The notes beneath the pieces are model-generated. The model was not told the origin of the DNA, did not search any database, and saw only the letters and a list, made by a program, of their open reading frames with translations. Source: an uncultured Planctomycetia bacterium (lineage in GTDB: Bacteria; Omnitrophota; Gorgyraeia; Velamenicoccales; Velamenicoccaceae). From it: a stretch of DNA of 64,000 nucleotides. Of the stretch, positions 5,797 to 52,462 are shown one piece after another; the first letter of the stretch is position 1, and each line of letters opens with the position of its first letter. Where the stretch lies: contig CAZUQR010000001.1 in assembly GCA_964622605.1 (NCBI GenBank), positions 135,265-199,264 of the forward strand, given 5' to 3'. The position numbers were made by a program, and so were the translations under genes.

Positions 5797-6162
5797 ATGA
5801 TCCGATCATCAGGCGCACCCGTCACGGCCCGTCCCGTCGTCAAGACCGACAAGCGCATCTTTTTTCGCAACCCGCTTTACGACGTGCGGGCCTCGGTGAA
5901 GAACGTGACGACGGGAGAGCGCTTCGAGGCCTTCATCAAAGACATCAGCGGGTCGGGGATGGGCCTGTCCACGCCCGCCCCGGTCGCGCCGGGCACGGTG
6001 ATGGAGATAGCCCTCGAGATCCCCGACGGCTTCGGTCCCCTGAAGCTCCTGGGCCGGGCGGTCTGGTCACGGTCGATCGATTTCTTCGGCGTGCGCACGG
6101 GCGTCACGATCCTGAATCCGCGTTTCATGTCCGTGGCGCGCATCCTGAAGCTGTTCTTCTGA
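5797..6162 (+). CDS. PilZ-domain c-di-GMP receptor
   Basis: 121 aa with both PilZ signatures: RxxxR (KRIFFRN) and DxSxxG (KDISGSGMG). Strong RBS GAGGAGG. Confidence 0.8.
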   Translation: MIRSSGAPVTARPVVKTDKRIFFRNPLYDVRASVKNVTTGERFEAFIKDISGSGMGLSTPAPVAPGTVMEIALEIPDGFGPLKLLGRAVWSRSIDFFGVRTGVTILNPRFMSVARILKLFF

Positions 6163-16898: not shown

Positions 16899-17698
16899 GG
16901 GTGTGGATGCTTGCGTTTCTCATCGTCTTTTGCCTGGCGCCGGCGGCGCGGGGTGCGGTGGAGTTTGAGGAGACCAAGAGCCGTCACTTCATCGTTTATC
17001 ACGAAGAAGGGGTGGGTAGGGATTTCGTGGAGGCGACCATCGAATTCGCCGAGAGGTATTATGGAGAGTTGACCGAGAAACTCGGCTTCGTCCGGTACGA
17101 CTACTGGACGTGGGACGACCGGGCCAAGATCTATATCTACGCCGACCAGGGGTCTTATATGGAGGATACCGGTCAGCCGGCGTGGTCCGGGGGCCTGGCG
17201 GCGTATCACGAGAAGACCATCCGGGTCTTTCCGCGCGGCGCCGGGTTCTTCGACGCGCTCCTGCCGCATGAGCTCGGCCATATCGTCTTTCATGAAGTCA
17301 TCGGCAGCCATGTCGTGCCCACGTGGTTGGATGAGGGGGTGGCCTGCTATTTGGAGCCGGCCCGCCGCTTCGGTTCGCAGAAGATGGCCCTCGATGCCAT
17401 CGAGGACGGCACGTTCATCCCGCTCAAGGAACTCCACGAGATGGATCCCCGCGAGCTGGCGGATGACGACCAGGTCGAGCTCTTTTACGCCGAGTCGGTG
17501 AGCCTGCTTACCTTCATCGTCGAGACATTCGGCATCGACCGCTTTAACGCGGTATGCGACAAGATCAAGGAGGGCCGGACGTTTGAAAGGGCCGTCAAGT
17601 CTTGTCTTTTCGGCGTCCAGGACCTCGAGGACCTGGCCCGGATGTGGGAGGATTCGTTGAAGAAGAAGGACAGCCCCACGCGCCGGACCATGCTATGA
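16895..17698 (+). CDS. Secreted MA-clan (gluzincin) metallopeptidase-like protein
   Basis: Signal peptide MRVWMLAFLIVFCLAPAARGA. HExxH (LPHELGHIVFHE) with a downstream WLDEGVACYLE glutamate, the Peptidase_MA_2-like arrangement. ATGA overlaps with both murG and murC. Confidence 0.65.
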   Translation: MRVWMLAFLIVFCLAPAARGAVEFEETKSRHFIVYHEEGVGRDFVEATIEFAERYYGELTEKLGFVRYDYWTWDDRAKIYIYADQGSYMEDTGQPAWSGGLAAYHEKTIRVFPRGAGFFDALLPHELGHIVFHEVIGSHVVPTWLDEGVACYLEPARRFGSQKMALDAIEDGTFIPLKELHEMDPRELADDDQVELFYAESVSLLTFIVETFGIDRFNAVCDKIKEGRTFERAVKSCLFGVQDLEDLARMWEDSLKKKDSPTRRTML

Positions 17699-40892: not shown

Positions 40893-42281
40893 GTGATCGG
40901 GCAAAAAAGGAAACCGCCGGCCATGATGAGCCTGCTGGGCAAGCTTTCAATGGGATCGCGGTCGCTGCGGCCGCAGCTCGTGGTGGCCTTTGCCCTCATG
41001 TCGGTCCTGCCGATCCTGTTGCTCTTGAGCTTTGTCTTCCCGAGTTTTCTGTCGCCGGAGGCCAAACCGGTCGTCATGGCGCTCGTCGTGCTCTTTGCCA
41101 TAGTGGGTTTTTTCCTGATGAAGAAGGTGATCGACTCCGTCATCACCATCAGTCAGGGCGTGCGTTCCCTGGCCAGCGGCGAGGTCACGACCGAGATCTC
41201 CTGTCCGCGCCACGATGAGCTCGGGGAGCTGAGCAGCAGCCTCAACCAGCTCGCCGAACACATCAAGAGCAATATGGACGAGCTCAAGATCTACGGCGAA
41301 CGGACGCGCAACATCAACACCCAGATCAACAGGCAGCTCGTCGCGCTGAGCGGTCTCTTGGAGATCAGCAATCTGATCACCCAGGGGGGGGACCTGGAGG
41401 AGGTCTTCGGCGCGGCGATCACGAAGGTGGCGCTTTTTGCAAACGGCGAGTTCGCCTTTCTGATGATGAAGACCGCCGATGCCTATGAGATGAGCGGCCA
41501 GTACGGCTTGAAGGGTCATATCCTGACGTCCCTGAAGTTGTCTTCGAACGCCTACCTGTTGGATCGTCTCTTGCAGGAGCCGCGGACGGTCCGGACACGG
41601 GGCGGGGCGTCGCCGGGAACGGACGACGATCTCCTAAAGCTGTTGGATGCGATGCATCTTTTGACGTATCCCATCTCTGTCAGCGGCCAGCCCAAAGGTT
41701 TCGTGGCCCTCGGCAACCGCAGGGAGAGCGTACCGTTCGGCGAGGAGGAGATGGAACTCATCGGGGTCTTTGCCAAACAGATCTCCCTGGCCGTTGAAAA
41801 TAAATTCCTTTCTTCTAAAATAAAAGAGATCGAGATCCGCGACGGCGCCTCCGGCCTTTACAATAAACGCTATCTGGTCCAGCGGTTGGATGAGGAGATC
41901 CTTCGGTCCATCTCCAACCAGCGGCCGTGCGCGTTCATCGTCTTCCAGGTGACGAATTGGCAGGACCTCCTGGAGGCGGTCGGCACCCAGAACGCCGGCG
42001 CGTGGACGCGTAAGATCGCCCAGACCCTGAAGGGCGAGGCGCGCTCCTTTGACTGCATCGGCCGCCTCGCCGAGGACATCTACGGCATCATCGTGCCGGA
42101 GAAGAACAAGCGCCAGGCCGAGCAGTCGGCCCGGCAGCTCCTGGAGAAGGTGAACGTGGCGCTGGCGACAGAGGGCTCGACGTGGCGACCCGCCTTCCGC
42201 TTCACCCTCGCGGAGAATCCCGTCGACGGGGCGGACGCCGCAGGCCTCCTGCAGAAGGTGGGAGAGCTCATCAAGGTCTAA
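40893..42281 (+). CDS. Membrane HAMP-GAF protein with a degenerate GGDEF domain
   Basis: Two TM helices, HAMP (ISQGVRSLASGEVTTEI..DELGELSSSLNQLAEHI), a GAF-like middle and a GGDEF fold (RDGASGLYNKRYL). The GGDEF signature is replaced by AEDIY, and RSFD (RxxD I-site) is kept at canonical spacing. Alternative start at ATG 40923. Confidence 0.75.
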   Translation: MIGQKRKPPAMMSLLGKLSMGSRSLRPQLVVAFALMSVLPILLLLSFVFPSFLSPEAKPVVMALVVLFAIVGFFLMKKVIDSVITISQGVRSLASGEVTTEISCPRHDELGELSSSLNQLAEHIKSNMDELKIYGERTRNINTQINRQLVALSGLLEISNLITQGGDLEEVFGAAITKVALFANGEFAFLMMKTADAYEMSGQYGLKGHILTSLKLSSNAYLLDRLLQEPRTVRTRGGASPGTDDDLLKLLDAMHLLTYPISVSGQPKGFVALGNRRESVPFGEEEMELIGVFAKQISLAVENKFLSSKIKEIEIRDGASGLYNKRYLVQRLDEEILRSISNQRPCAFIVFQVTNWQDLLEAVGTQNAGAWTRKIAQTLKGEARSFDCIGRLAEDIYGIIVPEKNKRQAEQSARQLLEKVNVALATEGSTWRPAFRFTLAENPVDGADAAGLLQKVGELIKV

Positions 42282-42299: not shown

Positions 42300-42749
42300 A
42301 TGGCGTCTTTCAAGCGTGTGACGACCAAACAACTCGGCGAGTTGCTCATTGAGCGCAAGGTCATCGCGGCCGAGCATCTCCAGAAGGCGCTGGACTTTCA
42401 GAAGGTCAACGGCGGCCTCATCGGCGAGATCCTCGTCCAGCTCGGGTTCGCGCGCGAAGAAGACATCGCCCAGGTCCTGACGGCCCAGTACGGCTTTCCG
42501 TACCTGCCCCTGGGTAATTACGACATCGACCCCGAGACCGCCCAGGCGATCCCGCAGCACGTGGCGCGGCAGTACTGCCTGATCCCGATCGACAAGATCG
42601 GCAACAACCTGACCGTCGCGATGTCCAATCCGCTCAACGCCCAGGCGATCGAAGACGTGGAGATGATCACCAAATGCGTCGTGCAGGCCTTCGTCAGCAC
42701 GACGACCGATATCCGCAAGGCGATCGAACGCTGTTATCCCGCAAAGTAG
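42300..42749 (+). CDS. Stand-alone GspE/PilB N-terminal (T2SSE_N, MshEN-like) domain protein
   Basis: 149 aa. Tandem 24-residue MshEN-like repeats QLGELLIERKVIAAEHLQKALDFQ and LIGEILVQLGFAREEDIAQVLTAQ, followed by the rest of the T2SSE_N fold (ARQYCLIPIDKIGNNLTVAMSNPLN). Confidence 0.75.
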   Translation: MASFKRVTTKQLGELLIERKVIAAEHLQKALDFQKVNGGLIGEILVQLGFAREEDIAQVLTAQYGFPYLPLGNYDIDPETAQAIPQHVARQYCLIPIDKIGNNLTVAMSNPLNAQAIEDVEMITKCVVQAFVSTTTDIRKAIERCYPAK

Positions 42750-42775: not shown

Positions 42776-44518
42776 ATGGGATCCCTCAGAGAACGCCTCC
42801 AAGAAATCCTCATTAAAAACAAGCTGATCACCGCCGACGACCTCAAGCTGGCCCTCCAGGTCCAGAAGGAGCACGGCGGCAGGCTCAGCGACGTCCTCGT
42901 CAAGCTGAACCTGGTCGGCGAGAAGGACCTCCTGCTGGCCCTGAGCGAGGGCCTGGGCTTCCCGCCCATCTCGCTGTCGCGTTTCAAGATCGACGACGAA
43001 GTGCTCAAGCTCGTGCCGCGGGACATGGCTAAGCATTATCAGATCATCCCCGTCGCCAAGATGGGACGCGCCCTGACCGTCGCGATGGCCGACCCCTTGA
43101 ACATCTTTGCCATCGACGACGTCAAGAGCCTGACGGGCTTCGAGATCAACCCCATCATCGCCTCCCAGAAGGAGATCAACCAGACGATCGAGCAGTATTA
43201 CGACGAGCCCGCCACCCAGGTGATCGACGAGATCATCAAGGAGGTCTCGGAGATCGACATCGAGGTCGTCAAGGCGACGCAGGAGGCGGGCCCCGACACG
43301 CAGGAGCTGGTCAGGCTCACGCGCGAGGTGCCCGTCATCAAGATCACGAACCTCATCATCGAGCAGGCGATCGAGATGGGCGCGAGCGACATCCTGATCG
43401 AGCCCTTTGAGCGCACGATGCGCGTGCGGCTGCGTATCGACGGGTTGCTGCGCGAGATCGAGTCGCCGCCGCTGAAGTTCCACGCGCCCATCGTCTCGCG
43501 CATCAAGGTCGTCTCGGAGCTGGACATCGCCGAGCACCGCCTGCCGCAGGACGGCCGCTTCAAGATCAAGATGACGGACCGTTTCGTCGATTTCCGCGTC
43601 TCGGTCCTGCCGACCTTTTACGGCGAGAAGGTCGCGCTGCGTATCCTCGACAAGAGCACGGCGACGCTCGATATCGACCGGCTGGGATTCGACAACCAGA
43701 CGTTGGCGACGGTCAAGGCGTCCAGCGACCGCCCCCACGGGATGATCATCGCGTGCGGCCCGACGGGCTCAGGCAAGACGACGACCCTGTATTCCATCCT
43801 TAAGTACGTCGACAGCCCCGAGGACAACATCGTTACCGTCGAGGACCCCGTCGAGTATCAACTCGATGGGATCAATCAGGTCTCGATACGCCCCGAGATC
43901 GGTCTGTCCTTTGCCAGCTGCCTGCGTTCGATCCTGCGCCAGGACCCGGACGTGATCATGGTCGGGGAGATCCGCGACTTCGAGACGGTGGATATCGCCA
44001 TCAAGAGCGCGTTGACGGGGCACATGGTGCTGACCACCCTGCACACGACGACCGCCGCGGGCTCCATCATCCGCCTGGTCAACATGGGCGTGGAGCCGTT
44101 CCTGATCACCTCGTCCGTCATCTGCGTGGTGAACCAGCGCCTGGTGCGCAAGGTCTGCGAGGCCTGCAAGGAGAGCCATCCCTTGAGCGACACGGTGATC
44201 GAGACGCTGGGGTTGACGAAGAAGGGCAGGGAGCCGATCCTGGCGTATCGCGGCAAGGGGTGCAAGCGTTGTTTGAATATGGGATATAGCGGCCGTGTCG
44301 TCATCGGCGAGGTCATCGTGCTGACGCCGACGATCAAGGAGCTCATCCTGAACCGCGCCCAGGAGTACGAGGTCAAGGCCGCCTCGCGGCTGGAGGGGAT
44401 GAAGTCCCTGCGCGAGAACGGCGTCGCGAAGGTATTGGAGGGCGTCACGTCGCTGGAGGAGATCCTGCGCGTCACCGCCCCCGACGAGCCGCTGGACAAA
44501 AAGAAAAAAGAAAAGTAG
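42776..44518 (+). CDS. pilB: Type IV pilus assembly ATPase PilB/GspE family, paralogue 1
   Basis: MshEN-like N-terminus, Walker A GPTGSGKTTT, Asp box/Walker B DPDVIMVGEIRD, His box TGHMVLTTLHT and the tetracysteine motif CEACK..CKRC. Confidence 0.88.
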   Translation: MGSLRERLQEILIKNKLITADDLKLALQVQKEHGGRLSDVLVKLNLVGEKDLLLALSEGLGFPPISLSRFKIDDEVLKLVPRDMAKHYQIIPVAKMGRALTVAMADPLNIFAIDDVKSLTGFEINPIIASQKEINQTIEQYYDEPATQVIDEIIKEVSEIDIEVVKATQEAGPDTQELVRLTREVPVIKITNLIIEQAIEMGASDILIEPFERTMRVRLRIDGLLREIESPPLKFHAPIVSRIKVVSELDIAEHRLPQDGRFKIKMTDRFVDFRVSVLPTFYGEKVALRILDKSTATLDIDRLGFDNQTLATVKASSDRPHGMIIACGPTGSGKTTTLYSILKYVDSPEDNIVTVEDPVEYQLDGINQVSIRPEIGLSFASCLRSILRQDPDVIMVGEIRDFETVDIAIKSALTGHMVLTTLHTTTAAGSIIRLVNMGVEPFLITSSVICVVNQRLVRKVCEACKESHPLSDTVIETLGLTKKGREPILAYRGKGCKRCLNMGYSGRVVIGEVIVLTPTIKELILNRAQEYEVKAASRLEGMKSLRENGVAKVLEGVTSLEEILRVTAPDEPLDKKKKEK

Positions 44519-44539: not shown

Positions 44540-46261
<1,722 letters not shown>

Positions 46262-46300: not shown

Positions 46301-47371
46301 ATGAACGTTCCTGTGAATACCATACTGATCATCGACCGCGACGAGGCCGTCTGCGCCCACCTGCGGGACGTCCTGGGCGTGCGTGGTTTCGAGGTGACAA
46401 CGGCCTGCACGGGGGGCTCTGGCCTGGACCTCTTCATGCGTTTGGTGCCGGCGATGGTGATGCTCGATCTGGCGATCCAGGACCTGGACATCCGCTACAT
46501 GATCCGCGAGATGAGACGCATCGACGAGCAGACGGTCGTCGTCTTGATGGGGTATCCCGACGAGGTGAACCTCGTCGATGAGACGCAGTCGGCCCGGGCG
46601 ACCGACTTTTTGGAGAAGCCCCTGAGGACGGAGAAGGTGATCTTCAAGGCCCGGCAGCTCCTCGACGTCCGGGAGACCCTGAGCACCCGGCTGGGATCCC
46701 TAGAGAAGATGGAAGAGAATGTGGTGCATCTGCAAAAGCAGCACCTGCTTCTTGCCCGGCGGATGGAAGAGACCCTGGGCAATCTCGCGCGCCTCGGCGG
46801 GGATTTCCGGGAGACGTACCTGAGGTCGCTCAGGTCGATGGCGCGCGCCCTGGACAGCCGCCACCGTTATACCTATTCGCACTGCGATAACGTGGCCCGT
46901 TGCGCCGAGCTGATCGGTCGGCGCATGGGCGTTGAGGCGGCGTACCTGGATGACATGCGTGAGGCCTGTTTCTTGCATGACCTGGGAAAGATGGGGCTTC
47001 CGGCGACGGTCCTCACGAAACCCGGCACCCTTTCGCCCGAAGAGACCGCCGAGATGCGGCTGCATCCCGTCCGGGGGGCCCAGATACTGGAGCCCTTGAG
47101 CTTCATGCCCCACGTCATCTCGTTTGTCCGTCACCACCATGAGCGCTGGGATGGAAAGGGTTATCCCGACGGTTTGTCGGGAGAGCGCATTCCGCTGGGT
47201 GCCCGTATCATAGCGGTCGCCGACAGCTATGATGCCATGGTCTCACCCAGGTCCTACCGGCGCGCGGGCTTGAGCCTGGGGGAGACGAAAGAGGAGTTCG
47301 CGCGCCACAGCGGGTCTCAGTTTGACCCGAAGATCGTCAACGCTTTTCTCAAATCTCTCGAAGACCTCTGA
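46301..47371 (+). CDS. Response regulator receiver fused to an HD-GYP c-di-GMP phosphodiesterase domain
   Basis: REC domain (ILIIDRDE..MVMLDLAIQD..FLEKP) and an intact HD-GYP (FLHDLGK, HHERWDGKGYPDGL). Confidence 0.85.
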   Translation: MNVPVNTILIIDRDEAVCAHLRDVLGVRGFEVTTACTGGSGLDLFMRLVPAMVMLDLAIQDLDIRYMIREMRRIDEQTVVVLMGYPDEVNLVDETQSARATDFLEKPLRTEKVIFKARQLLDVRETLSTRLGSLEKMEENVVHLQKQHLLLARRMEETLGNLARLGGDFRETYLRSLRSMARALDSRHRYTYSHCDNVARCAELIGRRMGVEAAYLDDMREACFLHDLGKMGLPATVLTKPGTLSPEETAEMRLHPVRGAQILEPLSFMPHVISFVRHHHERWDGKGYPDGLSGERIPLGARIIAVADSYDAMVSPRSYRRAGLSLGETKEEFARHSGSQFDPKIVNAFLKSLEDL

Positions 47372-47382
47372 TAAGGGGGCGT

Positions 47383-48576
47383 ATGTCGCTTTTCGGTTAT
47401 GTCGCCAAGGACAGCCAGGGCCTGAAACTTTCGGGCATACTCGAGGCAGGGGATCAGCACGAGGCGATCAGCGTCTTGCACAAGAAGGGCCTGATCGTCA
47501 TCTCGGTCCGCGAAGAGAAGGCCAAGAAGGTTGCAGAGAAGGGGGTCAAGCTCGACGATCTCGTCATCTTTTCCCGGCAGTTGGCCACCATGGTCGAGAG
47601 CGGCATCACCCTCGTCCAGGCCCTCCATATTTTGAGCGAGCAATCGGAGAACAAGACGCTCGCCGGCGTGACCCTGAACATCAAGGAGGCCATCGAAGGC
47701 GGCTCGAGCCTGCACGAGGCGATGGCCCGCCACCCGAAGATCTTCTCGCACCTTTACATCAACATGGTGAAGGCGGGCGAGACGTCGGGCCTCCTGGATG
47801 AGATCCTCGACCGGTTGTCGACGTACCTGGAGAAGACCGCGGCCCTGCAGCGCAAGGTGAAGTCGTCGCTCGTCTATCCCGTCGTGGTCATCACCATGGC
47901 CATCATCATCACGCTCGTCCTCCTGATCAAGGTCGTGCCGACCTTTGAAGGCATCTTTGCGACGCTGGGCGGGACCCTGCCGCTGCCGACGCAGATCCTG
48001 ATCGGGATATCCAATACGTTGCGGCGCTTGTTCCTTGTGATAGTCATCCTGTTCGTGTTCGTCGTCTTCCTCTTCAAGAAGTTTATCGATACGCCCAAGG
48101 GGCGCTACTGGTTCGATCGCCGGACCCTACGCCTGCCGATCTTCGGGCCGTTGATGCGCAAGGTCGTCGTCGCCAAGTTCTCGCGGACATTGGCGACCCT
48201 CGTCAAGAGCGGTGTGCCTATCCTCAATGCCCTGGAGATCGTCGGCAAGACCTCCGACAACCTCGTGGTCGAGGAGGCGGTCAACAGGGCCCGGGACTCG
48301 ATCCGCGAGGGCGAGCCCATCTCCGAGCCCCTGGCCAAGAGCGGTGTCTTTCCGCCCATGGTCGTGCGCATGATTTCCGTGGGAGAGCAGACGGGCCAGC
48401 TGGAGCACATGCTCAACAAGATCGCCGACTTCTATGACGAGCAGGTCGACGCCTCGGTCAGCGGCCTGACCTCCATGATCGAGCCCCTCGTCATCGGCTT
48501 TTTGGGCATCATCATCGGCGGTATCGTCATCGCCCTCTTCATGCCCATCTTCAAGATCACCGAGCTCATCCGCTAG
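47383..48576 (+). CDS. pilC: Type IV pilus platform protein PilC (GspF family)
   Basis: Two T2SSF repeats and three TM segments. Typical PilC length and position. Confidence 0.9.
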   Translation: MSLFGYVAKDSQGLKLSGILEAGDQHEAISVLHKKGLIVISVREEKAKKVAEKGVKLDDLVIFSRQLATMVESGITLVQALHILSEQSENKTLAGVTLNIKEAIEGGSSLHEAMARHPKIFSHLYINMVKAGETSGLLDEILDRLSTYLEKTAALQRKVKSSLVYPVVVITMAIIITLVLLIKVVPTFEGIFATLGGTLPLPTQILIGISNTLRRLFLVIVILFVFVVFLFKKFIDTPKGRYWFDRRTLRLPIFGPLMRKVVVAKFSRTLATLVKSGVPILNALEIVGKTSDNLVVEEAVNRARDSIREGEPISEPLAKSGVFPPMVVRMISVGEQTGQLEHMLNKIADFYDEQVDASVSGLTSMIEPLVIGFLGIIIGGIVIALFMPIFKITELIR

Positions 48577-48754
48577 TTCTTCTCGTCTTGCCCCCGCTGA
48601 CATGTTCATTGGACGGATCCCCGGACGGATCCCCTTCTGCCTGACGGGAGAGGAGGAACATCCGGCCGCCCCCCTTGAAAGCTGGCAAATACATGTTACA
48701 CTTATGATAGAGAAAACCGTGTAAGTCGATCAAGGTAAACCACGGCGGGTAACC

Positions 48755-48848
48755 GTCACCCTGGCAGGGGTTCGAAAGAGTGGGGCACAAAGCTACAGGG
48801 CCTAATCGTCTGTATTTTACGTAGGGCAGCCAGTTGCCGATAGAACAG
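48755..48848 (+). promoter_or_regulatory. c-di-GMP-I (GEMM-I) riboswitch aptamer candidate
   Basis: Blocks UUCGAAAGAGUGGGGCACAAAGC, GCCUAA and GUAGGGCAGCCAGUUGCCGAUAG match the conserved GEMM-I core as I recall it from the V. cholerae Vc2 aptamer. Closing helix CUGGC (48761-65) / GCCAG (48829-33). GNRA loop GAAA plus a CCUAA receptor. Confidence 0.8.
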
Positions 48849-48914: not shown

Positions 48915-48943
48915 TTGACAGGGGAAGGAGGTGGTGATATAAT
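48915..48943 (+). promoter_or_regulatory. Consensus sigma70 promoter upstream of pilA
   Basis: TTGACA (48915-48920), 17 bp spacer, TATAAT (48938-48943), about 110 nt upstream of the pilA ATG. Confidence 0.7.
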
Positions 48944-49054: not shown

Positions 49055-49480
49055 ATGCGCTCTAGGAGAAAAGGTTTTACGCTCGTTGAAATCATGATCG
49101 TTGTGGCCATCATCGTTCTCTTGGCGGCCATCGCAATCCCGAACCTGTTGCGTGCCCGCCTGAACGCGAACGAGGCGACGGCGATCGCGACGATGAGGAC
49201 CTTCAGCACGGCCATGGAGAGTTACCGTGCGGCCCAGACGCCGCCGACGTATCCGAGTGCCCTGACGAACCTCAACGGCAGCAATCCGCCGTACATCGAC
49301 AACGTACTGGCAAGCGGGAACAAGTCGGGTTACTTCTTTACGTTGAGCGCCGGCGCCAACACGTACACCGTCGTTGCGACACCGCAGGCGGTTAACGTGA
49401 CGGGGAGCCGGAACTTCTTCGTGGATTCGTCTGGTGTTGTTCGCGTCGGCACCTCGACTGCAGGCACACCGATCGAGTAA
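49055..49480 (+). CDS. pilA: Type IV pilin (PilA-like major pilin)
   Basis: Class III signal MRSRRKG/FTLVEIMIVVAIIVLLAAIAIPNLL with Glu5. RBS AGGAAAGGAGG. There are no cysteines, and the C-terminus is Ser/Thr-rich (VGTSTAGTPIE). Confidence 0.9.
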   Translation: MRSRRKGFTLVEIMIVVAIIVLLAAIAIPNLLRARLNANEATAIATMRTFSTAMESYRAAQTPPTYPSALTNLNGSNPPYIDNVLASGNKSGYFFTLSAGANTYTVVATPQAVNVTGSRNFFVDSSGVVRVGTSTAGTPIE

Positions 49481-51376: not shown

Positions 51377-52462
51377 ATGATGCACAAGAAGATCGACACG
51401 CAGGTCGTGAAGGGTCTGGTGAAGGACTCGACCGTCGCCGTGAAGGATATCTTCACGCGCTCCATGACCCAGGCCACGGGGCCCAAGGGGTCCGTGGGCG
51501 TCGACATCGGCAGCTACGCGGTCAAGGCGGTGCGGCTGGAATCCTCCAAAGAGGGCTACAAGCTCCTGGGCTTCGGGATCGAGAAGGTGTCAGGCAACAA
51601 TTATCTCGATGCCTTGAGCAAGTCTCTGGCCAAGGTCGGGGCGGCGCCGGACCAGTCGGCCGCCATCGCGGTGAGCGGTCAAGGCGTCGTCTCGCGCTAT
51701 ATCGAACTGCCCCTGATGAATACGAACGACCTTGAGTCCTCGATGCGCTTCGAGATCGAGAAGTACGTGCCTTTCGCCTTGGCGGAGGTCGCGACCGATT
51801 ACACGATCGTTCAGGAGCTCAAGGATAAGGCCAAGATGTCGATCTTGATCGTGGCCGCGAAGAATGACCTGGTGCAGAAGAAGACGGACCTGGCCCGGCA
51901 GGTGAACCTGAACCTCCGGGCCATTGATCTGGATTGTTTGGCCCTGGCCAACTTTTATACCGAGTTCTGCAGCCCCAAGAAGACGGGTTGCATCGGTCTC
52001 GTCAATCTCGGCAAGACCACCGCCAATATGAACGTCCTCGTCGACGGCTTCCCGTATCTGAGCCGCGACATCTTCGTCGGGGGGGACGATATCACGAAGA
52101 AGATGTGCGAGGCCCTGGAGGTGGACTACGCCGAGGCCGAGAATCTCAAGCACGATCCCGGCACGCGCCAGAAGGAACTCTACGCGGTGTGGGACCCGGT
52201 CCTCAACAACCTGGCGGCGGAGATCCGTGTCTCACTCGATTACTTTGAGGCCCGGATGAACAGGACCGTCGAGCAGGTGGTGATCACGGGCGGGACCAGC
52301 CGCCTGGCGGGCCTCAGGGATTATCTCTGCCAGCTCCTGGGCGTGGAGGTCCGGGCGACGGATTTCCTCGACAGGCTGCCGTGCGCCGAGGCCGTGGACC
52401 GACGCGCCCTGAAGGCGGAGGCGGACCTCCTGGCGGTCGCCATGGGGCTGGCCCTGCGATAA
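51377..52462 (+). CDS. pilM: Type IV pilus assembly protein PilM
   Basis: Actin-like ATPase fold (VGVDIGSYAVKAV, VNLGKTTANM, VITGGTSRLAGL) at the head of pilMNOPQ. Confidence 0.88.
   Translation: MMHKKIDTQVVKGLVKDSTVAVKDIFTRSMTQATGPKGSVGVDIGSYAVKAVRLESSKEGYKLLGFGIEKVSGNNYLDALSKSLAKVGAAPDQSAAIAVSGQGVVSRYIELPLMNTNDLESSMRFEIEKYVPFALAEVATDYTIVQELKDKAKMSILIVAAKNDLVQKKTDLARQVNLNLRAIDLDCLALANFYTEFCSPKKTGCIGLVNLGKTTANMNVLVDGFPYLSRDIFVGGDDITKKMCEALEVDYAEAENLKHDPGTRQKELYAVWDPVLNNLAAEIRVSLDYFEARMNRTVEQVVITGGTSRLAGLRDYLCQLLGVEVRATDFLDRLPCAEAVDRRALKAEADLLAVAMGLALR

Follow-up and report, generated by a model that had tools for sequence, protein, structure and literature searches.

A free-standing MshEN domain encoded before two PilB ATPases of an Omnitrophota bacterium: a candidate c-di-GMP receptor of the type IV pilus motor

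What could be the role of a free-standing MshEN domain encoded directly in front of two pilus ATPases that have N-terminal domains of the same fold? This question is raised by a gene for a protein of 149 amino acids (aa) located at positions 42300..42749 (plus strand) of a 64,000-nucleotide (nt) stretch of contig CAZUQR010000001.1 (assembly GCA_964622605.1), hereafter the window, which belongs to an Omnitrophota genome deposited as an uncultured Planctomycetia bacterium. The gene lies 26 nt before the gene of the ATPase PilB1, which is followed by the gene of PilB2, just as the first-pass annotation, made from the sequence alone, had described. The answer towards which we lean, with modest confidence, is that the protein is a functional free-standing MshEN-type receptor of cyclic di-GMP (c-di-GMP), which would act on the type IV pilus motor in trans. 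The effect of c-di-GMP at MshEN domains on PilB-type motors is still unclear in model organisms (PMC11656802, PMC12002112). If sensor and motor are separate polypeptides, the sensor can be titrated against the motor, the contact surface can be mapped, and the target (ATPase activity, docking or motor choice) can be tested, all of which is difficult when the domain is fused.

The 149-aa protein consists solely of a complete MshEN/GSPII domain. Its open reading frame (ORF) begins with ATG a few bases downstream of the Shine–Dalgarno sequence AAGGAGG and is in a frame different from that of PilB1. The NCBIfam profile NF053729 ("c-di-GMP_motif", 53 positions) matches aa 11–63 with 58.7 bits (cut-off 38), and the Pfam profile PF05157 (MshEN) matches aa 64–147 with 69.9 bits (cut-off 23.1); jointly, they span the whole protein, and no further domains were found. 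The earlier claim that only a GspE/PilB N-terminal domain is present is thus borne out, and the check with PF05157 proposed along with it gave a positive result. The two consecutive 24-residue segments predicted earlier are indeed present. Motif I (aa 11–34, 42330..42401, plus strand) reads QLGELLIERKVIAAEHLQKALDFQ, and Motif II (aa 40–63, 42417..42488, plus strand) reads LIGEILVQLGFAREEDIAQVLTAQ; they are joined by the five-residue linker KVNGG (42402..42416, plus strand). Their register follows from the alignment to the N-terminal domain of Vibrio MshE (5HTL), also proposed earlier as a check, with an offset of +2. The resulting layout of 24-5-24 residues is the one defined for Vibrio cholerae MshE by Wang et al. 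2016 (PMC5013675). The MshEN_C (T2SSE_N1-like) subdomain, delimited by PF05157, occupies the remaining part (aa 64–147, 42489..42740, plus strand).

Comparisons with known structures give the same picture. A phmmer search against the PDB returned only N-terminal domains of PilB, PilF, MshE and XpsE, including PilF 6F8L (E-value 1e-46) and MshE 5HTL (3.6e-14). The AlphaFold2 model has a mean pLDDT (predicted local distance difference test score) of 66; the four-helix bundle (helices 12–18, 24–37, 41–47 and 53–64) is modelled with a pLDDT of 76–89, and the C-terminal subdomain has low confidence (29–70). When this model was used in a Foldseek search, the top 20 matches were MshEN/GSPII structures only, led by 8PDK, the c-di-GMP-bound GSPII-B domain of PilF (E-value 4e-8), and 5HTL (TM-score, the template modelling score, 0.65). 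Both parts of the MshEN/GSPII fold, the four-helix bundle and the alpha/beta T2SSE_N1-like part, can therefore be recognized in the protein. A database search found 3648 homologues of stand-alone length; the one from Candidatus Velamenicoccus archaeovorus shows 84% identity.

Relatives of the locus were collected by scanning one genome per species, which gave 251 related stretches, from which 80 loci were kept; the ORF of the small gene has a length of about 149 aa in 78 loci. The residues known to contact the ligand in Vibrio MshE can be traced in the small protein. In Motif I, L12, G13, L27, L31 and Q34 correspond to L10, G11, L25, L29 and Q32 of MshE, and in Motif II, G42, G49, I56, L60 and Q63 correspond to G40, G47, L54, L58 and Q61. 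Both motifs carry a dipeptide of the Leu-Gly type, all positions of the hydrophobic clusters and the terminal Gln. Position 3 of each motif (G11 and G40 in MshE) is an invariant glycine: G13 and G42 are found in 78 of 78 stand-alone orthologues, as are L12 and Q63, and Q34 and G49 are found in 75 of 78 each. The hydrophobic triads and terminal glutamines of MshE (L10/L54/L58, L39/L25/L29, Q32 and Q61) are represented by L12, L27, L31, I41, I56, L60, Q34 and Q63, each conserved in 75–78 of the 78 proteins if an exchange of Ile, Val and Leu is allowed at I41. The position of MshE Gly18 is occupied by Lys in the window protein and by Gly in 46/78 orthologues. The backbone amides of MshE Gly11 and Gly40 contact the guanine bases; the substitutions G11L, G11I and G40I abolish c-di-GMP binding while the domain stays stable, and the glycine is invariant even in the relaxed search motif of Wang et al. 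(PMC5013675). Judging by these alignments, the presence of an intact c-di-GMP motif in the stand-alone protein is well supported.

The two ATPases that follow are different in this respect. PilB1 (580 aa, 42776..44518, plus strand) and PilB2 (573 aa, 44540..46261, plus strand) each combine an MshEN fold with a T2SSE ATPase domain, and in the translation of PilB1, the Walker A, Asp and His boxes and the tetracysteine can be read. The first-pass annotation held that both ATPases also keep such N-termini; this is true of the fold, which PF05157 recognizes with 79.6 bits in PilB1 and 80.8 bits in PilB2, and does not hold for the motif. At position 3, where that annotation's own pattern requires Gly, PilB1 has Q9 and S38, and PilB2 has T9 and K38. 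The motifs of PilB1 begin with RLQ and RLS, the second of them ending in Gly instead of Gln, and those of PilB2 read KLT...H and NLK...A. Glycine at either position 3 is found in 0/61 orthologues of PilB1 and 0/48 orthologues of PilB2. The replacements follow a rule of their own: in PilB1 orthologues, the first position is Thr or Gln in 54/61, the second is Ser in 59/61, and the site of MshE Q61 is Gly in 57/61; in PilB2 orthologues, the first position is mostly Ile, Thr or Leu, and the second is Arg or Lys in 47/48. Since the replacement residues are conserved, the ATPase N-domains are not in decay but kept in a different state.

Because the ATPases lack an equivalent motif, the interpretation of the small protein moves away from an additional copy or a competitor and closer to a sole sensor among the three proteins. 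Profile scores alone over-call c-di-GMP receptors, as both degenerate ATPases pass NF053729 (45.4 bits for PilB1 and 42.6 bits for PilB2, cut-off 38). For annotation practice, this means that both glycines should be checked and the profile score alone should not be relied on. The possibility that the small gene is a recent duplicate of its neighbour's N-terminus was considered and rejected: the stand-alone protein is 38% identical to the N-domain of PilB1 and 34% identical to that of PilB2, and its family clusters apart from both.

The small gene is under strong purifying selection. Its ratio of non-synonymous to synonymous substitution rates (dN/dS) is 0.16, 0.03 and 0.10 in comparisons with three loci whose synonymous sites are not saturated (L001, L002 and L003, respectively). 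In the comparison with L002, the other genes of the operon have higher values (about 0.11 for PilB1, 0.10 for PilB2, 0.12 for the HD-GYP gene and 0.28 for the GGDEF-like gene), and in the comparison with L001, PilB1 (0.14) is slightly under the small gene. In each of the eight loci compared (L001–L007 and L010), dN is lower for the small gene than for any other gene of the operon.

Its neighbourhood is also preserved. The conserved order comprises genes for a radical SAM protein, a GGDEF-like protein, the small MshEN protein, PilB1, PilB2, usually a REC-HD-GYP protein, and PilC. Downstream, the small gene is followed by PilB1 in 62 of 63 loci (median gap 34 nt). The core of small MshEN, PilB1, PilB2 and PilC is retained even in the distant family f26, in which the small protein is 32–35% identical; within the sequence fetched for this family, neither a GGDEF-like nor an HD-GYP gene was detected. 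The linkage of the small gene that survives is thus the one to the motors. Together with the complementarity of the motifs, this phylum-wide synteny supports a functional tie of the small protein to both ATPases; in the class of loci to which the window belongs, the membrane GGDEF-like sensor is a plausible additional partner. In seven loci (L054, L060, L078, L131, L143, L155 and L163), a gene of a PilT-like ATPase (354–378 aa, without MshEN) is located immediately 5' of the small MshEN gene.

The scan returned only loci of the Omnitrophota type, some of them under record titles naming Planctomycetia or Deltaproteobacteria. Several loci (L001–L003, L008, L011 and others) with operons at 83–97% protein identity are titled "uncultured Planctomycetia" or "Deltaproteobacteria". 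These titles are probably taxonomic mislabels of metagenome-assembled genomes.

To avoid a selection of examples, all 103 PF05157 matches in 15 genomes of 15 genera were aligned to one hidden Markov model, and the two Gly positions were scored. ATPases whose gene directly follows a small MshEN gene, or comes second in a tandem that begins with such a gene, include none with both glycines (Gly/Gly), seven with one Gly and 20 without Gly; ATPases without such a neighbour include 18 with Gly/Gly, three with one Gly and ten without Gly. The small MshEN proteins themselves have Gly/Gly in 28 of 30 cases. On the tree of the domains, whose deep nodes are weak, small genes preceding an ATPase gene form three or more separate lineages, and the ATPases paired with them fall into several clusters. 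The effective number of independent cases of such pairing is about three or four.

The clearest of these cases is found in the same genome as the window. On contig C33 (1531–4183, minus strand, locus L081), a 158-aa Gly/Gly MshEN protein is encoded directly 5' of a 724-aa ATPase, whose MshEN N-domain is degenerate, without a recognizable double motif, and a PilC-like gene comes next. The pair follows the gene of ATP synthase beta. The same pairing occurs in other Omnitrophota, usually just after ATP synthase beta (about 16 of 18 loci; L087 is an exception). The ATPases on contigs C5 and C10, which have neither a small neighbour nor an extra C-terminal domain, are canonical. In turn, the other degenerate ATPases of this genome carry different input modules, namely PilZ in the ATPase of C33 and a putative receiver in that of C9. 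The latter, a 708-aa protein (MshEN match 17182–17442, minus strand), has a degenerate MshEN N-domain and, by reading of its sequence, a putative C-terminal REC domain; a PilZ-domain ORF is located about 3 kb 5' of its gene. Natural fusions also exist: P0136 and P0193 contain a canonical MshEN, a degenerate MshEN and an ATPase in this order, so the arrangement in Omnitrophota may be viewed as this architecture divided into two parts.

Other forms of the domain were observed as well. About 23 kb upstream of the window, a PilT-like ATPase without MshEN is directly followed by a gene of a 195-aa protein (C1:112055-112643, plus strand; the pair at C1:110979-112643) that contains two complete tandem MshEN_N modules (four motifs with Leu-Gly) and one MshEN_C; a homologous pair is present in another genome, G002 (locus L121). 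Additionally, a conserved family of 480–568-aa proteins with a C-terminal Gly/Gly MshEN and no similarity to the T2SSE ATPase was noted at five loci (L113, L139, L150, L158 and L165).

Several results count against a receptor acting in trans on the motor. In the census, the comparison of Gly/Gly domains with the rest between the two ATPase classes gives p = 4.7e-7 by Fisher's exact test, a value that overstates the evidence, the census units being related orthologues. The ten no-Gly ATPases without a small partner indicate that degeneration does not require one. The C33-type ATPases bear a canonical C-terminal PilZ domain (RxxxR and NxSxxG motifs by reading, PF07238 in the genome-wide search of the C33 ATPase), and the small protein is not the sole possible sensor there. 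In the window's class of loci, the small gene is coupled at least as tightly to the GGDEF-like gene as to PilB1. Position 1 of the motifs of the small protein is Q11 and L40 instead of Arg, outside even the relaxed [RKPN] set, and this departure is a stable one (Gln in 69/78 orthologues in Motif I and Leu in 78/78 in Motif II). Changes of Arg9 shift the affinity of MshE by no more than about fivefold (Wang et al., PMC5013675), so the departure at position 1 is not disqualifying. Finally, the GSPII-A domain of Thermus PilF is close to the consensus and fails to bind c-di-GMP (PMC12002112), which means that motif conservation does not guarantee binding; the GSPII-C domain binds it (PMC12002112), although only one of the two glycines is present in the phmmer/PDB alignment. 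The behaviour of these two domains makes the motif state an imperfect predictor of binding, and only the no-Gly state, as in the ATPases of the window, can be regarded as firmly predictive.

Even so, the receptor reading can draw on the identity of the domain, the integrity of its motifs, purifying selection, phylum-wide linkage and complementarity with the ATPase motifs, all of which are observed. What it adds to them, namely ligand binding by the small protein, its protein partner and the sign of its effect (activating or inhibiting), we infer from sequence. According to the proposed mechanism, the N-terminal four-helix bundle of the small protein would bind one c-di-GMP molecule via its two intact 24-residue motifs. 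Through protein–protein contact, the ligand state would then reach either the two ATPases or the PilM/PilC platform where these dock. Pilus extension would thus be coupled to the level of c-di-GMP, which the co-encoded REC-HD-GYP phosphodiesterase could lower locally. An adaptor, a brake and a motor selector are indistinguishable from sequence. A more far-reaching version, which we consider speculative and put forward only tentatively, is that the pilus motor of Omnitrophota is a receptor-ATPase split between polypeptides: both PilBs would share the free MshEN as an obligatory subunit, which would pair with their degenerate but conserved MshEN domains, and perhaps with the PilT-like ATPase encoded beside it in some lineages, so that c-di-GMP would determine which motor engages PilM/PilC, a solution that would have evolved more than once (in at least three lineages).

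It is possible, if rather doubtful, that the small protein works in the opposite sense, as a c-di-GMP-dependent competitor or brake that occupies the site on the platform, for example on PilM, where the MshEN domains of the ATPases dock, and thereby inhibits extension or selects the motor. Such a role would suit a protein that has the full MshEN_C subdomain besides the bundle, the more so as Thermus PilF contacts PilM through its N-terminal half, which bears the GSPII domains (PMC12002112), and the position of the small gene between the PilT-like and the two PilB genes in several lineages fits a choice of motor. A simple decoy, however, would give the ATPases no need for so consistent a loss of the ligand-contact residues, and the sign of regulation is not distinguished by any of the data.

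The upstream gene suggests another partner. It encodes a membrane HAMP-GAF-GGDEF-like sensor, and the small protein might relay its state or exchange c-di-GMP with it, the linkage to the ATPases being secondary. In 73 of 77 loci, the small gene is directly preceded by the GGDEF-like gene; the median gap is 7 nt, and the two genes often overlap, which suggests translational coupling. The canonical GG[DE]EF site is found in 0/74 orthologues, and because the active site is degenerate in all of them, the protein is probably not a cyclase and is more likely a sensor or scaffold. This explanation nevertheless appears unlikely to us. The f26 family keeps the MshEN-PilB1-PilB2-PilC core without a GGDEF-like match upstream in the fetched sequence; in some other lineages, the PilT-like gene separates the GGDEF-like gene from the small MshEN gene; and the second family of small MshEN proteins follows ATP synthase beta and not a GGDEF gene. 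In addition, the I-site RxxD of the GGDEF-like protein (RSFD in the window) is not conserved, with Arg in only about 10 of 74 orthologues, so that a role of the I-site as a receptor may be specific to the lineage of the window. A local supply of c-di-GMP by the GGDEF protein of the operon was also considered and is unsupported, given the same degeneration in all 74 orthologues.

The motif might also be retained for folding alone. The small protein would then be a ligand-independent structural subunit of the motor using the MshEN fold for protein contacts only. Many residues of the motif are indeed core hydrophobics of the four-helix bundle (PMC5013675), and the near-consensus GSPII-A of PilF shows that such a domain can fail to bind. 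We find this quite improbable, since the invariant residues of the motif, at positions 3 (Gly) and 24 (Gln), are those important for the ligand and not for the fold: the same residues are replaced in the well-folded and conserved N-domains of the ATPases, and the MshE variants G11L and G40I are stable yet non-binding (Wang et al., PMC5013675).

A buffer or sink of c-di-GMP without a specific protein partner is very improbable. MshEN domains have a high affinity for c-di-GMP (14 nM to 0.5 µM, PMC5013675), and small single-domain receptors can sequester the ligand, but this would leave unexplained the fixed place before the ATPases in at least three lineages, the retained C-terminal subdomain and the lowest dN of the operon over the whole protein. 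That the gene is a functionless fragment or an annotation artefact, such as a broken piece of PilB or the split-off front of an ATPase with two MshEN domains, is hardly credible: the fused forms P0136 and P0193 make an origin by fission conceivable, but the constant length in 78 loci, the own start with its Shine–Dalgarno sequence, the frame unlike that of PilB1, the dN/dS of 0.03–0.16 and the 3648 homologues of stand-alone length led us to reject a pseudogene or non-functional fragment. An ancient fission is a possible origin of the small gene, compatible with a receptor acting in trans.

The operon in the window contains further elements related to c-di-GMP. The GGDEF-like gene (40893..42281, plus strand) encodes a protein with transmembrane, HAMP, GAF and GGDEF-like parts according to domain matches, and its degenerate active site reads AEDIY; its stop lies 18 nt before the small MshEN gene. 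PilB2, the REC-HD-GYP c-di-GMP phosphodiesterase (46301..47371, plus strand; domain matches) and the platform protein PilC (47383..48576, plus strand; PF00482, 225 bits) come after PilB1 with gaps of 11–39 nt. The HD and GYP signatures are intact in the window and in 38/38 orthologues. Between 42281 and 47383, a consensus scan detected no terminator on the plus strand. Between pilC and the gene of a type IV pilin (49055..49480, plus strand; N_methyl motif PF07963), a c-di-GMP-I riboswitch aptamer is located (48724..48841, plus strand; Rfam RF01051, 49.2 bits, gathering score 35). A perfect promoter-like site TTGACA-17-TATAAT can be noted at 48915–48943, 3' of the riboswitch and about 110 nt before the pilin start; given its position between the riboswitch and the pilin gene, the transcript under riboswitch control is ambiguous. 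PilM (51377..52462, plus strand; PF11104, 182.8 bits), a possible docking partner of MshEN/GSPII domains, is encoded further downstream. A small PilZ-domain reading frame (5851–6120, plus strand; 128 aa, PF07238, 45.4 bits) was also found in the window. Omnitrophota are ultra-small bacteria, most of them uncultured, and show traits of host dependence or predation (PMC10066038). The 1.9 Mb genome has 12 MshEN and 16 PilZ matches; together with the riboswitch before the pilin gene, they make control of surface appendages by c-di-GMP appear central to this organism.

When compared with known systems, the window protein shares with Vibrio cholerae MshE (5HTL, PMC5013675) the fold of two subdomains, the 24-5-24 layout and, in both motifs, the Leu-Gly dipeptide, the Leu clusters and the terminal Gln. 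It differs in that it is not fused to an ATPase, has Gln and Leu instead of Arg at position 1 and Lys instead of Gly18, and its binding is only predicted. Its best matches in sequence and structure are the GSPII-A, -B and -C domains of Thermus thermophilus PilF (6F8L, 8PDK and 9G1W), which divide labour among themselves: c-di-GMP binding is confined to B and C (PMC11731258, PMC12002112). In PilF, the GSPII domains and the ATPase form one polypeptide, whereas in the window the domain predicted to be competent for binding is a separate gene product beside two ATPases.

The notion that stand-alone MshEN proteins are in themselves rare or new was rejected: two of them, PA3740 and cce_1044, are already catalogued, and among the best 150 database representatives, 57 are short proteins with a single domain and no ATPase (44 of the 57 with Gly/Gly), some of them maybe owing to truncated contigs. 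In the literature searched, we found no description of a stand-alone MshEN heading a pilB pair with degenerate motifs, nor of the reciprocal conservation pattern of small Gly/Gly proteins versus ATPases without Gly. Pseudomonas aeruginosa PA3740, compared here by description only, is likewise ATPase-less and combines MshEN with a diverged T2SSE_N1; it is one of the proteins whose c-di-GMP binding Wang et al. regard as experimentally supported, and they tie it to swarming (Supplementary Table 4, PMC5013675). Unlike for the window protein, the sources describe neither adjoining PilB genes nor a compensation for degenerate ATPase motifs. Cyanothece cce_1044, with the architecture (MshEN_N)2 (Supplementary Table 4, PMC5013675), is also small, ATPase-less and built from MshEN c-di-GMP modules, but it is without the MshEN_C subdomain; the 195-aa tandem form at C1:112055-112643 is similar to it.

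The idea of c-di-GMP input in trans has its closest counterpart in the FimX-PilZ-PilB system of Xanthomonas and Pseudomonas (7LKM/7LKN/7LKO), and both the sequence search and the fold search with the window protein matched the N-domain of PilB in 7LKO. There, a PilB unable to bind c-di-GMP receives the signal through docking of FimX-PilZ on its N-domain (PMC8389850, PMC11656802). The receptor in that system is the EAL domain of FimX, bridged to the motor by a degenerate PilZ, whereas the candidate receptor in the window is a paralogue of the ATPase's own N-domain.

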